Positions 50,215-54,516 of a stretch of 64,000 bases of DNA are shown one piece after another. Source of the stretch: an uncultured Anaerolineae bacterium (lineage in GTDB: Bacteria > Chloroflexota > Anaerolineae > JAFGEY01); NCBI GenBank assembly GCA_964481205.1, contig CAYZYE010000001.1:16552-80551 (forward strand), in the 5' to 3' direction. The position numbers were made by a program, and so were the translations under genes. Below the pieces are notes generated by a model. It made no database searches and had not been told where the DNA came from. It saw nothing but the letters and a program-made list of their open reading frames with translations. Positions within the stretch are counted from its first letter, which is position 1; the number at the start of each line of letters is the position of its first letter.

Positions 50215-51884
50215 TGACGCACCTCCTCGCCGGCCGGCGAGCGACCCGCCCCGTTGACTCCCTCCAGCCTAATGGTGATATCGTGCAACCCCAATGACTC
50301 GCGTATCTCGCGTACCGCGGTCTGTAACACCGTGTCCACATCCAGTGTTTCGCGCATCCGCGCCGTTACCTTACCGGTCAACTGCTCTCGCACAGCGTTA
50401 CGCCGGGTTTCCCGGTAAAACTGGGCCCGCTCGACAGCAGAACCCAACTGAGCGATCAGCGCCTCCAGTATCGACACCTGATCCGCGCTCCAATCTCCCC
50501 CATCTGGCGATTTACGCCCTTCGATCACCCCAACAACCTGACCACCGACTTGAATCGGCATCGCCAGCACGGTGGCCGCCCCGCCCTCTCGTTCACCGCG
50601 AACCGCCTTTACGGTACGCACCGCCGTCTCCATCTCGGGGTACCACAACTCTCCGACCTCGGTCGTACCTTGCCCCGTGCTTACCGCCCCCAAATTGGTC
50701 TCTTGACGAAGCAATTCTTGCCAGTTTTCCAACCTCATCGCACCATACGCCCGGCGCTCCGCTTCCAGGCTCTCCTCTGCGCGCTGAAAAAGACGCGCAT
50801 TATCGATCGCCACCGCCACCTGATCGGCCAGCGACTGAAGCACACTCACATCCTGTTCACTAAACGCCCCAGGCTGGGCGCTCTGTACATCCAATACACC
50901 AATGATCTCGTCACGCGCTTGTAAACAAATCGCTGCCTCAGAGCGCGTATCCGGCAAATCGGGATTGTCAAAAAAAATCGCATCCTCGCCCACATCCAGG
51001 GCAATACGAAATCCGCCATGCCTGGCCACATCACCGACAATTCCCCCTTGTCCAACCCGCAAACGATAGCCGCGCGCCAGCATCTTTTGCCCCGCTCCAC
51101 CAGAACCAGCCCGCAACTCGGCCCATTGTCCGGTCGAATCCAACAAAAACAATCCCGTATAATAAAATCCAAACTCCCTGTTGACCGAATCCACCACCCG
51201 CGCGATCAAAACATCCGGTTCCAGCAACGATGCGGCATCCCGGGCCGTCACCGCCACGGCCTCCAGGTAACGCGCATGCTGCGCCAGATCGCGCGCTTGG
51301 ATCTCTAACTGGGCGCTATTTTCTTGCAACGCCCGGTTACTCTCGGCCAAAGCCTGAGCGTTTTCACAGGTGCTTGCCAGCGCACGTTCGATACTCGAAC
51401 TGGCCAACCAGGACAACACGCCAAGAACACTGAGCACAAGCGCCAATTCAACAGAAGGAAGCTGGTTGCCCTGCAACGAACGAATCACATAAATGACCAG
51501 AATTTCCAAAACAGCCGTCGGCAGAGCAATCCACGAAGGCGCGATCAATGGAACAATGGCCACCGGCAAAACGATCGCCGGGAACAATGCAGTGTCTGGC
51601 ATAAGAATGAACGCCGCGGCGCAAACCACAAAAACCAGAAACGCGTATGCAGGCCACCGCTGTCCCCGGCGCACCGGCCAAAAGAACACGACCAATGCAA
51701 ACAAAACCAACCACCCTTGAACCAGAAACTCCCGACCGGATGCCGAGCTGAAAAAGCTCAACACAATGAGCAGCACATCCAAAGCACAGAGCACCAGGAG
51801 AATAGAACACAACATCCTGCCCCTCTGGACAACCATCTCGTCATCCGACCGAATGTCAAGCAACCAACCCAGGACGTTTCTCAC
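50211..51884 (-). CDS. Polytopic membrane GAF-GAF sensor protein, no output domain
   Basis: GTG start inside a GTGA overlap with the stop of the terpene cyclase; GAGGAGG at -8. TM helices, tandem GAF (FGFYYTGLFLLDSTGQWAELRAGSGGAG..), cap ..VDTVLQTAVREIRESLGLHDITIRLE. Confidence 0.8.
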   Translation of the reverse strand: MRNVLGWLLDIRSDDEMVVQRGRMLCSILLVLCALDVLLIVLSFFSSASGREFLVQGWLVLFALVVFFWPVRRGQRWPAYAFLVFVVCAAAFILMPDTALFPAIVLPVAIVPLIAPSWIALPTAVLEILVIYVIRSLQGNQLPSVELALVLSVLGVLSWLASSSIERALASTCENAQALAESNRALQENSAQLEIQARDLAQHARYLEAVAVTARDAASLLEPDVLIARVVDSVNREFGFYYTGLFLLDSTGQWAELRAGSGGAGQKMLARGYRLRVGQGGIVGDVARHGGFRIALDVGEDAIFFDNPDLPDTRSEAAICLQARDEIIGVLDVQSAQPGAFSEQDVSVLQSLADQVAVAIDNARLFQRAEESLEAERRAYGAMRLENWQELLRQETNLGAVSTGQGTTEVGELWYPEMETAVRTVKAVRGEREGGAATVLAMPIQVGGQVVGVIEGRKSPDGGDWSADQVSILEALIAQLGSAVERAQFYRETRRNAVREQLTGKVTARMRETLDVDTVLQTAVREIRESLGLHDITIRLEGVNGAGRSPAGEEVRQ

Positions 51885-53368
51885 GGCACCGCCTCCTCGT
51901 CAGGCTCCGTCATCATCAACGCGCTGCAAATCGCCGACTCGACCACCCGGACCGGGGTGTAAAGACACTTGCCGACCCACATCGCGGGCCGCTCGGCCAT
52001 ACACTCGAACAGTCTGGCCCGCCCCCGTACCGACACGGAGCGATCGATTGGCGCCACGCTGCGCGCGTACACACTCAAGGCTTGCAAACAATAGGCCGTC
52101 TCTTCGGCCGTCGAGCCGTCATAATGCCCCCATCCGCCGTCGAACCGCTGCATATCCAAAAGCCATTCGACCCCGCTTTGGGCCAGATCGTCGTCCACAC
52201 CCGCCAGCGCGATCACAGCGTGACTTGTCGCATAATAAGGCGACGCATGCCACTTGTCCATCCAATACCCGCCATCCCTTTGTTCGTCGCGCAGCCAGGC
52301 GACAATCCTGGTCGTATCCGCCTCGGCCACCCCCTTGAGCGCCTCCAAAACGTGAATATTGACGCTCGTACTGGGATTTCGTTCGACAAGATAACAGACA
52401 AAATAGCCGTTCCGCTCGAACTGTCCGAGATGCCGCCAATCAGGATTCAAACCGGCCTGCCGCAAAATCTTGAACACAATCGCAGTTACGTCTGCATCTA
52501 AAACCGAATATCCCGAACTGAATCCCGCGCCGCTCTTGCGCTCCCACATCGCCTGCAAGTCTCTTATGTGCCGCGCCACTTGCGCATCGCGCCACATTAT
52601 CCCCGGCTCGCCCAGAAACAAATTCCACAAACACCAGCCGGTCTCAAAGGTATCGAACGAAAACACCTGGGGCGCCTTGCCTTTATAAACCTCGGTCACC
52701 TGGGCAATATACCGTCGCGCCGGCGCGTTACCAGGATCTTGGGTCAACAAATATGCGGTCGCCGAAGGCGACATCGCCACACTGCCGTTGCTCTCCAAAA
52801 GAGACTCGGCTTCCCGGACATCAAAGGCGTCGCCCATCGACTCGAGCGAAAATGCCAGCGGACTGTTCTTCGAGTAACGTATATCCGGCGGAATCTTGGC
52901 CAATTTCTCTTCACACATACGCTCATAGCGTGCAAACGCCGGGTAAGGAAGGTTGAACCCCAATGTCTGGCACCGTTTGAGCAAAGTTGGAATAATAACT
53001 TCAAACCCAATGGTCTCGTGCTCATTCTCCAGCCGGTCGACCTTTTGCCAAATGTACTCGATCCCTCTGGCAATGACTTTGTGGGCGCATTCGTCCGGCC
53101 ACTCGGCCAAAGCGAGAATAGCGGCCAGGGTAGAGATGATGCGATCGTGAATATATTCTATCTCTCCGCCCCAACTGCCATCAGCGCGTTGATTTTGCTT
53201 GATCCAATCCAGAATCCTGGGAAAAGCAGGCGCCGCGCCATCTTTTTCGGCCGGAATGCGCGCCAACCAGGCCGTATCGTATACCGTTGGAAACATCACA
53301 CCACAGCGACCAATACCAATTTCACTGACGATCGATCGTCGAATTTGTTCTACGGTTAAACTTGACAC
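51881..53368 (-). CDS. Class II (protonation-initiated) diterpene cyclase, homolog of M. tuberculosis Rv3377c (halimadienyl/tuberculosinyl diphosphate synthase) and the Herpetosiphon kolavenyl diphosphate synthase
   Basis: N-terminal YDTAW motif (PTVYDTAWLA). Two QW repeats (QNQRADGSWGG, DMQRFDGGWGH). The general-acid motif is at 52484-52498 as DADVT, i.e. DxD(V)T where DxDD is expected, matching the Rv3377c-type DxDTT variant. Other blocks match Rv3377c as recalled (KWH.S.YY.T.H, AEETAYC.QAL). The 5' end is uncertain: the ORF-track start is TTG at 53413, while GTG at 53366-68 after GGGGGG is preferred. Confidence 0.8.
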   Translation of the reverse strand: MSSLTVEQIRRSIVSEIGIGRCGVMFPTVYDTAWLARIPAEKDGAAPAFPRILDWIKQNQRADGSWGGEIEYIHDRIISTLAAILALAEWPDECAHKVIARGIEYIWQKVDRLENEHETIGFEVIIPTLLKRCQTLGFNLPYPAFARYERMCEEKLAKIPPDIRYSKNSPLAFSLESMGDAFDVREAESLLESNGSVAMSPSATAYLLTQDPGNAPARRYIAQVTEVYKGKAPQVFSFDTFETGWCLWNLFLGEPGIMWRDAQVARHIRDLQAMWERKSGAGFSSGYSVLDADVTAIVFKILRQAGLNPDWRHLGQFERNGYFVCYLVERNPSTSVNIHVLEALKGVAEADTTRIVAWLRDEQRDGGYWMDKWHASPYYATSHAVIALAGVDDDLAQSGVEWLLDMQRFDGGWGHYDGSTAEETAYCLQALSVYARSVAPIDRSVSVRGRARLFECMAERPAMWVGKCLYTPVRVVESAICSALMMTEPDEEAVP

Positions 53369-53559: not shown

Positions 53560-54516
53560 GTCGACTTGATCGTCCCACCCCGCTAGCAATTGAACCTGAG
53601 GTACAGGATGCCAAAAAGCACCCGCTTCATAAAGGCGTCCCAGGCCAATCACACCATCCCGATTCAACCGGTAAAACGTTTGCGCTTTGCCAAACGCTTC
53701 AGACGGCAACGTACTGTAATCACGGTGCTGCCCCTGTCTGGCAAACAAATGATCGTACAAAATGCTCCGCAACTGTTTTTGCGAAAAATCAAAAGACAAA
53801 CCAACCGTAAAATACAGATCGGCGCGACCGTCGAGCAGCGGTGGAAACACCCAGGTTCGAAGCCGGTTGAACGTGATATAAATATCGACCGGGGCAACAG
53901 GTTCGCCATAATACAACTCGATAGCCCGATCCTTGTTCGGCGCCACGCCATGCTCTTGATGGTATCGTATCACCTGCTCGAAGATTGGCGTCATTTGATC
54001 TTGTTCCGAGTTGAATCCCCAAAAGAGAACGTGTTGGTCATTCTCTCTAGTTTGTTCCTCGACCCGATCAAACATTTCCAACGCATCCTTGTATCCCAGT
54101 TCCTGCAACACGCAACGATAGTTGCCAAAAAAACGAACGCGAACGCCATACTGAGCATAAAACGCCAAAAACTCGGGACTGGCCGCAATCCTTTCCATAC
54201 CGCTTGTCAACGCCAAAGGCAAATAGCGCTTCCCCTTTCCTTCAAGCTGACTGGGAATGACCGCATGCGTCAAAAGCGTAGACACACCATGTTCGAAAAA
54301 CAACCTCGTAATTTCCAAAAACCGCTGACCGCCATACTTGAGGTATCCCTCCCAATAAGAGCGATCCTGCGGCCAATGATCTAGATGATTGAGAATAAAC
54401 CACCTCTTGGTTCCCCCGGCCGCAAAAACAACGGTCTCGAGTCCACGCTCGCGGACAATCTGCGCAATTTGAGACACGCTGAGGCTCTGAAACCAGGCCA
54501 TATTCTGTGCCGTCAT
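53557..54516 (-). CDS. Rv3378c-family diterpene synthase/transferase (UPPS-like fold), homolog of tuberculosinol synthase and kolavelool synthase
   Basis: Start ATG (MTAQNMAWF) with GGAGG at -5; the ORF-track start is GTG. Multiple blocks align to Rv3378c as recalled: IAQIVRERGLETVVFAAGGTKRWFIL, LFFEHGVSTLL, DLYFTVGLSFDFSQKQLRSILYDHLFARQ, VIGLGRLYEAGAFW. It lies directly upstream of, and co-directional with, the class II cyclase, the same order as Rv3378c-Rv3377c. Confidence 0.8.
   Translation of the reverse strand: MTAQNMAWFQSLSVSQIAQIVRERGLETVVFAAGGTKRWFILNHLDHWPQDRSYWEGYLKYGGQRFLEITRLFFEHGVSTLLTHAVIPSQLEGKGKRYLPLALTSGMERIAASPEFLAFYAQYGVRVRFFGNYRCVLQELGYKDALEMFDRVEEQTRENDQHVLFWGFNSEQDQMTPIFEQVIRYHQEHGVAPNKDRAIELYYGEPVAPVDIYITFNRLRTWVFPPLLDGRADLYFTVGLSFDFSQKQLRSILYDHLFARQGQHRDYSTLPSEAFGKAQTFYRLNRDGVIGLGRLYEAGAFWHPVPQVQLLAGWDDQVD

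Follow-up and report, generated by a model that had tools for sequence, protein, structure and literature searches.

We have examined a 64,000-nt stretch of contig CAYZYE010000001.1 (assembly GCA_964481205.1), referred to below as the window, which comes from an uncultured Anaerolineae bacterium of the phylum Chloroflexota. The minus strand carries every large open reading frame (ORF) of the window, and positions 3321..63889 (-) hold about 60 kb of co-directional, tightly packed genes, 21 of which encode GAF proteins. Inside this GAF train, as a previous sequence-only reading of the same DNA had correctly described, lies a pair of genes homologous to Rv3378c and Rv3377c of Mycobacterium tuberculosis, namely a putative diterpenyl transferase and a class II diterpene cyclase, directly followed by the gene of a sensor with a six-helix membrane domain (Table 1). 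In M. tuberculosis the two proteins are a tuberculosinyl transferase and a halimadienyl/tuberculosinyl diphosphate synthase, respectively, with 1-tuberculosinyladenosine (1-TbAd), tuberculosinol, and isotuberculosinol as products. This pair is known almost solely as a tuberculosis virulence locus and is thought to have been acquired horizontally. Loci of relatives, taken from other genomes or contigs for comparison, are labeled L001–L095.

Table 1. Features of the terpene locus and its surroundings (positions within the 64,000-nt window).
Feature	Positions	Strand	Basis and remarks
Rv3378c-like enzyme (transferase) gene	53557..54516	(-)	319 amino acids, ATG start, GGAGGGG upstream
Diphosphate-binding loop VFAAGGTKRW, residues 30-39 of the transferase	54400..54429	(-)	Alignment with Rv3378c and 15 homologues
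Class II diterpene cyclase gene	51881..53368	(-)	495 amino acids, GTG start, GGGGGGA upstream
Acid motif DADVT of the cyclase (D291-A-D293-V294-T295)	52484..52498	(-)	Sequence, family alignment
GTGA overlap, cyclase TGA and sensor GTG start	51881..51884	(-)	Sequence; GAGGAGG 7 nt upstream
Downstream sensor: six-helix membrane domain, coiled coil, two GAF domains	50211..51884	(-)	557 amino acids; Pfam
N-terminal membrane domain of the sensor, residues 1-200	51285..51884	(-)	Profile, hydropathy
Threonine-synthase-like pyridoxal phosphate (PLP) enzyme with C-terminal receiver domain	3321..5120	(-)	NCBIfam PRK08197, E 3e-79; 3' end of the train
Repeat copy 1, about 90 nt, starting at a stop codon (TAGGAGCGTGCTGAA...)	53470..53559, end approximate	(-)	Between the two terpene genes
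Repeat copy 2	54660..54759, end approximate	(-)	Between the upstream GAF gene and the Rv3378c-like gene

For want of a matching Pfam or NCBIfam model, public records list the product of the first gene of the pair only as "hypothetical protein". A phmmer search against the PDB retrieved Rv3378c structures as its sole match (E 2.8e-43, residues 13-302), with no UPPS sequence matched at E <= 1, and its AlphaFold2 model (mean predicted local distance difference test, pLDDT, 76.6) has the Rv3378c structures as top Foldseek matches (E ~1e-19, TM-score 0.65-0.73), followed by the cis-prenyltransferases UPPS, DPPS, and NDPS (E ~1e-7). The proposal of the sequence-only reading, a homologue of Rv3378c with a UPPS-like fold, is confirmed by the search and by the predicted model, and the protein belongs to clade A, one of two clades of relatives described below. 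It is predicted to replace the diphosphate of a cyclised diterpenyl diphosphate by water or by another nucleophile. The counterparts of Y51 and Y90 of Rv3378c are Y58 and Y98, which are invariant in 17-20 sequences; according to the PDB titles 3wqn and 4kt8, the Y51F and Y51F/Y90F mutants of Rv3378c were used to trap the substrate. R38 is also invariant in the alignment with homologues. The loop in which it lies shows Gly34 at the position of Asp34 of Rv3378c and Lys37 at that of Arg37. This loop reads AAGGT in clade A, xNGT in clade B, and FDGT in Rv3378c (FDGTRRW), so that the residue at position 34 is Gly in the window and in all of clade A, Asn in clade B, and Asp is not universal even in the nearest Chloroflexota relatives of Rv3378c. 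Asp34 is the equivalent of the E. coli UPPS Asp26, which in cis-prenyltransferases binds Mg2+-diphosphate, a role also indicated by the structure of Rv3378c with Mg2+ and diphosphate.

The cyclase has as its best PDB match 6VPT, i.e., Rv3377c (E 4.2e-74, full length, query residues 28-503), well ahead of the plant and bacterial copalyl diphosphate synthases (CPS, ~1e-45 to 1e-36) and of squalene-hopene cyclases (1e-16). Its AlphaFold2 model (pLDDT 93.2, predicted TM-score 0.92) is again closest to 6VPT in Foldseek (E 4e-30, TM-score 0.84/0.86) and fits it better than PtmT2, Tpn2, or the plant CPS enzymes. Search and model together confirm a member of the Rv3377c subfamily of class II diterpene cyclases with a predicted beta-gamma didomain, whose expected reaction is the conversion of geranylgeranyl diphosphate (GGPP) into a bicyclic diterpenyl diphosphate. 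Sequence search and structure prediction had been named beforehand as the points on which the assignment of both enzymes could fail, and both favor the Rv3378c/Rv3377c family and folds. The motifs cited for the cyclase were found as well, with YDTAW at residues 30-34, the acid motif DADVT, and three QW-like motifs by our count.

The acid motif itself requires a correction. The central acid Asp293 is invariant in the family and the first Asp is also present, and the sequence-only reading was right that Rv3377c departs from the canonical DxDD (it has DCDTT), but its use of DxD(V/T)T as a hallmark of Rv3377c holds only in part, as the fourth position varies among 68 family members, with D the commonest residue and T, I, G, C, E, and V also found. 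The closest relatives of the window cyclase carry DADET (78% identical) and DADDT or NADDS (~60% identical), and the Val of the window is a further departure from the Rv3377c motif. Given this variability, the fourth position probably does not define membership of the subfamily.

Most of the remaining catalytic residues are retained. D293, H339, D371-K372-W373, and W464 are invariant among 34 homologues, with K467, L469, and Y470 kept in at least 90% of them. Of these, H339 corresponds to H341 of Rv3377c, D371-K372-W373 to the (D/E)KW motif, and Tyr470 to the base Tyr479, while Gly466 takes the place of Ala475; the roles of the activating His, the (D/E)KW motif, the base Tyr, and position 475 in Rv3377c-type cyclases have been described (PMC9585517, PMC9814783). 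Tyr479 is conserved in 92% of the Rv3377c subfamily, which has Gly or Ala at position 475 (PMC9814783). The window cyclase retains this Tyr (Tyr470) and, four residues ahead of it, a small one (Gly466), which makes a halimane-type product the most likely. Their conservation only suggests halima-5,13-dienyl diphosphate in particular; Tpn2 has the same two residues and yet gives a clerodane product (PMC9814783). The window clade offers natural variants at two catalytic sites that have been studied in the M. tuberculosis enzymes (Asp34 to Gly, and the last DxDD position to Val), which makes it useful for enzymology.

The start of the cyclase gene deserves some comment, as its ORF is open from a TTG at 53413. 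The 495-residue form is favored by homologues and by an independent ENA gene call; the NCBI gene call (P0111) is shorter, with 471 residues. At the other end, the stop codon of the cyclase overlaps the start of the sensor by 4 nt, and the identical overlap is present in independent gene calls for L081 and for L082, the latter from a relative with 85% identity. The overlapping GTG as the start of the sensor is also backed by the homology of its N-terminus, which begins at residues 3-4. The overlap on which the sequence-only reading based translational coupling to the sensor train is confirmed at this junction, and at this one only; further upstream, the two terpene genes are separated by 188 nt and the Rv3378c-like gene begins 240 nt after a GAF gene. 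An assembly artefact was considered and ruled out, since the same arrangement is found in the independent ENA contig L081 and the same two-gene form in L082. The NCBI and ENA contigs encode an identical Rv3378c-like protein, and the closest relative is an Anaerolineae genome assembled from a metagenome. We found no methyltransferase, P450, or polyprenyl synthase gene when the window's large ORFs were examined, in keeping with what the sequence-only reading had said of the immediate neighborhood.

The distribution of the pair was obtained from a scan of one genome per GTDB species, with the loci of the 80 best relatives read for their context. Rv3378c-like relatives are present in 319 species genomes, and the best 80 are nearly all Chloroflexota, mostly metagenome-assembled Anaerolineae, with Longilinea arvoryzae KOME-1 (L040, clade B) as the cultured carrier among them. 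About 70 of the 80 have a class II cyclase as the next gene downstream, in the same orientation, so the ordered enzyme pair is a widespread Chloroflexota module. These relatives fall into two clades. Clade A, which includes the window, comprises ~44 protein clusters with transferases 57-85% identical to that of the window. Clade B forms the majority and its proteins are ~40% identical to those of the window. As one genome carries both clades (L001 and L014), they represent paralogous modules. Counting this one, genomes with two or three separate modules are represented by L001 + L014, L021 + L042 + L078, and L068 + L093, and this multiplicity implies that the modules have diverged in function.

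All the readable relatives of clade A lie among signaling genes, with a GAF train in L001, L002, L082, L083, L086, and L087, and histidine kinase and receiver genes as neighbors, instead of a GAF train, in L089. Most of these loci are four-gene cassettes in which a NUDIX hydrolase and a SIS protein are placed between the Rv3378c-like enzyme and the cyclase. The SIS protein has two SIS domains and resembles the isomerase half of GlmS. The inserted genes occupy 10957..12730 in both L001 and L083, and the insert is also seen in L086, L087, and L089. Such genes could point to a step involving a nucleotide or a sugar phosphate, or to hydrolytic removal of the diphosphate from the diterpenyl diphosphate. 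Both the NUDIX and the SIS gene are missing from the window and from L082, where the pair stands in its two-gene form. The core of clade B consists of the Rv3378c-like enzyme, the cyclase, a membrane histidine kinase (transmembrane-PAS-HisKA-HATPase), and a receiver-only protein.

When compared with the M. tuberculosis locus, the window has the same two protein families and folds, with conserved equivalents of Tyr51 and Tyr90 in the transferase and, in the cyclase, of the central Asp of the acid motif, the activating His, the DKW motif, and the base Tyr. Its gene order (transferase then cyclase, same strand) is, as the sequence-only reading had noted, that of M. tuberculosis. Describing the pair as of the M. 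tuberculosis type is correct as to the families, but the window belongs to a divergent paralogous clade that has Gly at the Asp34 position and Val in place of Thr296, with 33-38% identity to the M. tuberculosis pair (the range of clade A as a whole), and clade B is the closer one (41-51%; up to 51% to Rv3377c and up to 47% to Rv3378c). Within L004-L080, examples of such clade B pairs in the M. tuberculosis order are L066, L025, L061, and L062. The host of the window is a free-living Chloroflexota, and no Rv3376-like, methylerythritol phosphate (MEP) pathway, or GGPP synthase genes lie nearby. The window cyclase moreover overlaps a membrane sensor gene, whereas the M. tuberculosis locus has been reported as constitutive and largely unregulated (PMC11476799).

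A second known system within the phylum is Haur_2145-2147 of Herpetosiphon aurantiacus, which makes O-methylkolavelool and also combines a Chloroflexota class II cyclase with an Rv3378c-type diphosphate-hydrolysing enzyme (PMC8131916, PMC9814783). However, Haur_2145 clusters apart from Rv3377c, with the gibberellin-type ent-copalyl diphosphate synthases (PMC9814783), while the window cyclase is nearest to Rv3377c, a distinction that for Haur_2145 we draw from its published description. The Haur cluster contains a methyltransferase and the window none, which places the window outside the O-methylkolavelool-type clusters. For the Rv3377c subfamily, 126 "terrabacterial" members were reported, with an Rv3378c equivalent in the vicinity in 44% of cases (PMC9814783), and a study of 2024 on the M. 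tuberculosis locus, in which orthologue searches outside mycobacteria failed, derived a plasmid origin from nucleotide composition alone (PMC11476799). In the literature searched, which covers subscription journals incompletely, we found nothing on Rv3378c together with Chloroflexi and no description of an Rv3378c/Rv3377c-type pair linked to a sensor. The window enzymes add new and divergent members to a known family, and the Chloroflexota pairs constitute a large environmental reservoir and a plausible donor pool for the M. tuberculosis locus.

The sensor that follows the cyclase has no output domain and is an orthologous neighbor in all the clade A loci examined. By hydropathy, residues 23 to 165 of its N-terminal domain contain six hydrophobic segments; the loops that connect them have about eight residues or fewer, and there is no sizeable extracytoplasmic loop, so that any sensing by this domain must take place within the bilayer. 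Starting at residue 3-4, the first ~200 residues of the sensor can be aligned with the N-termini of the clade B kinases (VLGWLLDIRSDD vs VLNRLIDVRSTD, pairwise E 3e-5), and a hidden Markov model (HMM) of 44 clade B kinase N-termini gives the window sensor 38 bits (E 1e-12). The runner-up among the 28 window proteins tested, a set with many membrane proteins, reaches 17.5 bits. A profile of the whole family recovers 44 of the 44 clade B kinases (104-156 bits) and scores the window sensor at 228 bits, a protein that is itself among the sequences from which the profile was built. Only one of the 21 GAF proteins of the window has a strong match to the domain. Weaker profile matches (26-36 bits), with high composition bias, are given by the products of 10319..12046, 36304..38091, 17550..19409, and 4997..8041 (-), the latter being the terminal hybrid kinase. 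These four train proteins may be distant paralogues of the cyclase-linked domain.

The domain family is small. Among 1.84 billion representative proteins phmmer found 31 members only, with the domain always N-terminal and fused to GAF (17 of 26), PAS-kinase (6), STAS (2), or HD (1) modules, and the N-terminal 215 residues of the sensor retrieved no match at E <= 0.001 from a collection of 5.8 billion proteins. In Pfam, sub-threshold matches were obtained to MASE6 and MASE11 only. Like these input domains, it is polytopic and N-terminal, has no large loops, and is attached to varied modules (GAF, PAS-kinase, STAS, HD), but it differs from them in falling below the Pfam thresholds, in the small size of its family (31 representative clusters), and in its position directly after a diterpene cyclase.

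This position is highly conserved. The enzyme pair followed by a membrane sensor with this domain is found in the window and in ~60 related genomes. In clade B, a domain-bearing histidine kinase comes directly after the cyclase in 44 of the 51 loci with enough downstream sequence, with gaps mostly of -4 to +36 nt, and the receiver-only protein is next in 26 of them; transferase, cyclase, and kinase show comparable divergence (median pairwise identities 52, 48, and 47%). In clade A, the gene after the cyclase carries the domain in each locus examined (47-64 bits), and extra paralogues of the domain flank the cassette in L001 and L083. What is attached to the domain changes from GAF-GAF in the window to PAS-kinase-receiver in L089 (clade A) and PAS-kinase in clade B. 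Clade B modules such as L040 share with the window the enzyme pair, its order, the six-helix domain after the cyclase, and a junction that often overlaps or is very short; they differ in having a PAS-HisKA-HATPase protein plus a receiver partner instead of GAF-GAF, in lying outside GAF trains, and in their other upstream genes. Over ~40% sequence divergence and a change of sensor domain, the constant elements are the transferase, the cyclase, and the membrane domain.

The association was also approached from the opposite side, by picking seven proteins on the basis of the membrane domain alone and then reading their neighborhoods. A class II cyclase lies directly before the domain protein in four of the seven. 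In L089 this is the four-gene cassette of clade A, followed by a transmembrane-PAS-kinase-receiver protein, L090 and L093 are clade B loci, and at L094/L095 the cyclase is of the clade A type and no transferase is visible. The other three proteins do not follow a cyclase, so that the membrane domain, though strongly associated with terpene loci, is not exclusive to them.

These data bear on the alternative that the association has no function: a mobile cassette of two genes might by chance have inserted among sensor genes, in a region rich in them, or the enzymes might be decaying, as their Gly34 and Val294 might indicate. The non-canonical residues at key motif positions would fit decay, and the missing NUDIX and SIS genes together with the repeat-containing spacers of the window suggest rearrangement. 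Yet independent assemblies show the same arrangement, as do relatives with transferase identities of 57-85% (clade A) and ~40% (clade B), and a search that starts from the sensor domain finds cyclases again. Against the 85% relative, the ratios of nonsynonymous to synonymous substitution (dN/dS) are 0.08 for the transferase, 0.15 for the cyclase, and 0.20 for the sensor, i.e., all three are under purifying selection, which is strong in the two enzymes, with all the other catalytic residues conserved. Their low dN/dS shows that both terpene genes are maintained by selection despite the departures in their motifs. We consider a functionless association very improbable.

It is therefore the function of the association that has to be explained. 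The sequence-only reading had connected the terpenoid with the neighboring GAF proteins, and the connection with signaling stands, with signaling neighbors in all the clade A loci examined and a kinase plus receiver in clade B, but the conserved partner is the membrane domain and not GAF. GAF domains as terpenoid receptors were set aside, given that the clade B partners have no GAF domain, and the likely receptor moves to the N-terminal membrane domain. Thus, the observation made from the sequence is confirmed and its interpretation is supported with these corrections.

The reading we prefer, and hold with moderate confidence, is that the pair forms a two-step pathway to a bicyclic diterpenoid that acts on the six-helix sensor domain within the membrane, with the working pair and the sensor as one functional unit. 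Enzyme identity and folds, most catalytic residues, purifying selection, the overlap, and the three-part gene arrangement come directly from the computations; from them we infer the substrate, the product, and the response of the sensor to that product. Asp293 of the cyclase would protonate GGPP to give a bicyclic diterpenyl diphosphate, and the Rv3378c-like enzyme would then ionise this allylic diphosphate, with water capturing the cation to yield a diterpene alcohol or, alternatively, with another nucleophile in this role, as adenosine is for Rv3378c. The six-helix domain, almost wholly buried in the membrane, would detect the lipophilic product either by binding it as a ligand or by responding to its action on the bilayer. 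In the lineage of the window the signal could pass through the GAF-GAF module into the GAF train, which ends in a hybrid histidine kinase. Sensing within the membrane fits the domain because it lacks a sizeable extracytoplasmic loop.

Several points weigh against this reading. There is no GGPP synthase in the 64-kb window, and a single transcript for the terpene genes is not assured because of the 188- and 240-nt spacers. Catalysis may be different or weak in both enzymes, as Gly34 replaces the presumed Mg2+-diphosphate Asp in the transferase, and Val294 of the cyclase cannot form a hydrogen bond to Asp293 of the kind made by Thr296 in Rv3377c, in which the central Asp is the general acid (PMC9585517). 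Among the three reverse-test proteins that do not follow a cyclase, one is part of a GAF train and has no cyclase nearer than 6 kb, and two, which are among the weaker matches, are in unrelated contexts, one with an HD-type and the other with a STAS output. Finally, the synteny fits equally well a sensor that detects the product and a sensor that needs or monitors a lipid.

The latter possibility leads to a different role for the compound, that of a structural membrane lipid, which would order the membrane as hopanoids or other polyisoprenoid lipids do. The sensor array would need it to assemble or to function, and the domain would monitor the state of the bilayer as homeostatic feedback instead of binding a signal molecule. 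A membrane domain almost entirely within the bilayer and a train that encodes many membrane proteins are in line with it, the 4-nt overlap would make cyclase and sensor together, and there is a parallel in Bacillus subtilis, where KinC depends on polyisoprenoid-dependent membrane microdomains. The genes upstream of the clade B pairs also speak for an envelope role. They vary, with FemAB-like or GNAT proteins, GT87-like glycosyltransferases, ICMT-like membrane methyltransferases, and MFS or ABC/FtsX transporters among them (examples are L009 5799..9727, L010 3428..10008, and L004 9402..10001), and suggest that the diterpenoid is modified, exported, or linked to the envelope. However, the known products of Rv3378c-type enzymes are minor or secreted and not bulk membrane lipids, and the domain is strongly matched in only one of the 21 GAF proteins of the window. 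We regard a structural role as rather unlikely.

The direction of control may also be the reverse, with the signaling train or its kinase controlling the synthesis of a secreted or defensive terpenoid, e.g., a nucleoside similar to 1-TbAd. Sensor-regulator genes beside the operons that they control are common, the Rv3378c product of M. tuberculosis is a secreted bioactive lipid (PMC9585517, PMC11476799), MFS and ABC/FtsX exporters are found upstream in clade B, and the ~90-nt element upstream of both terpene genes of the window might serve them as a common regulatory site. The partner response regulators of clade B, however, are receiver-only and have no DNA-binding domain, which argues against control of the operon by simple transcriptional means, and the GAF-GAF sensor of the window has no output domain either. 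In addition, the conserved part is the membrane input domain, hard to explain by control of expression alone, and the terpene genes of the window are near the 5' end of the train, away from its output end. An output role seems to us quite unlikely.

Returning to the preferred reading, of a diterpenoid acting on the membrane domain, a bolder extension would be that in Anaerolineae a self-made diterpenoid, or an adduct such as a terpene nucleoside, is a membrane-borne signal read by dedicated six-helix receptor domains. This we advance only tentatively. If true, it would represent a previously unrecognised pairing of lipid signal and receptor in bacteria, and an ancestral physiological role for an enzyme pair later used by M. 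tuberculosis as a virulence factor. The tie of the pair to one membrane-sensor family across two deeply diverged clades is in any case unusual for a terpenoid pathway, and raises the testable question of whether a bacterial diterpenoid is sensed inside the membrane. Experiments are possible with Longilinea arvoryzae KOME-1, which is cultured and carries the clade B version.

The remainder of the train is made up of GAF proteins with input domains such as dCache, HAMP, PAS, periplasmic-binding-protein, and MASE11, most of them without an output domain. Parts of kinases are seen only in the first protein, 61029..63353 (HAMP-GAF-HisKA, lacking a recognisable ATPase domain), and in the last one, 4997..8041 (GAF-HisKA-HATPase-REC). 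At the 3' end of the train, the fusion of a threonine-synthase-like PLP enzyme with a receiver domain could be a phosphorylation-controlled enzymatic output. Also inside the train are a ParA/MinD-like ATPase (22013..22807, AAA_31, E 1e-45) and a DUF6989 protein (19324..20076), both (-).

The two terpene genes are bordered by the largest gaps of the train (292, 240, and 188 nt), and two of these spacers contain the ~90-nt repeat. No convincing promoter-like site was found in the two spacers, and no clear excess of such sites (7 found vs 4.3 expected); there was no Rfam match in 50000..58000. A small ORF starting at a GTG within the repeat was ruled out as a gene, as the two copies do not conserve it: one has 18 codons, and the other continues in a different frame without a stop. 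When the two spacers were compared by BLASTN with all the related loci fetched, no copies appeared outside this organism, so the repeat does not belong to the conserved module. It begins exactly at a stop codon (TAGGAGCGTGMTGAA), and copies 1 and 2 share conserved blocks in the same order, with three or more matches to the repeat obtained in 0 of 100 shuffles. A weak terminator-like hairpin is located at 53449-53433, and a third copy of the repeat, of ~17 nt, lies at 63927..63941 (-), after the gene at the edge of the window.

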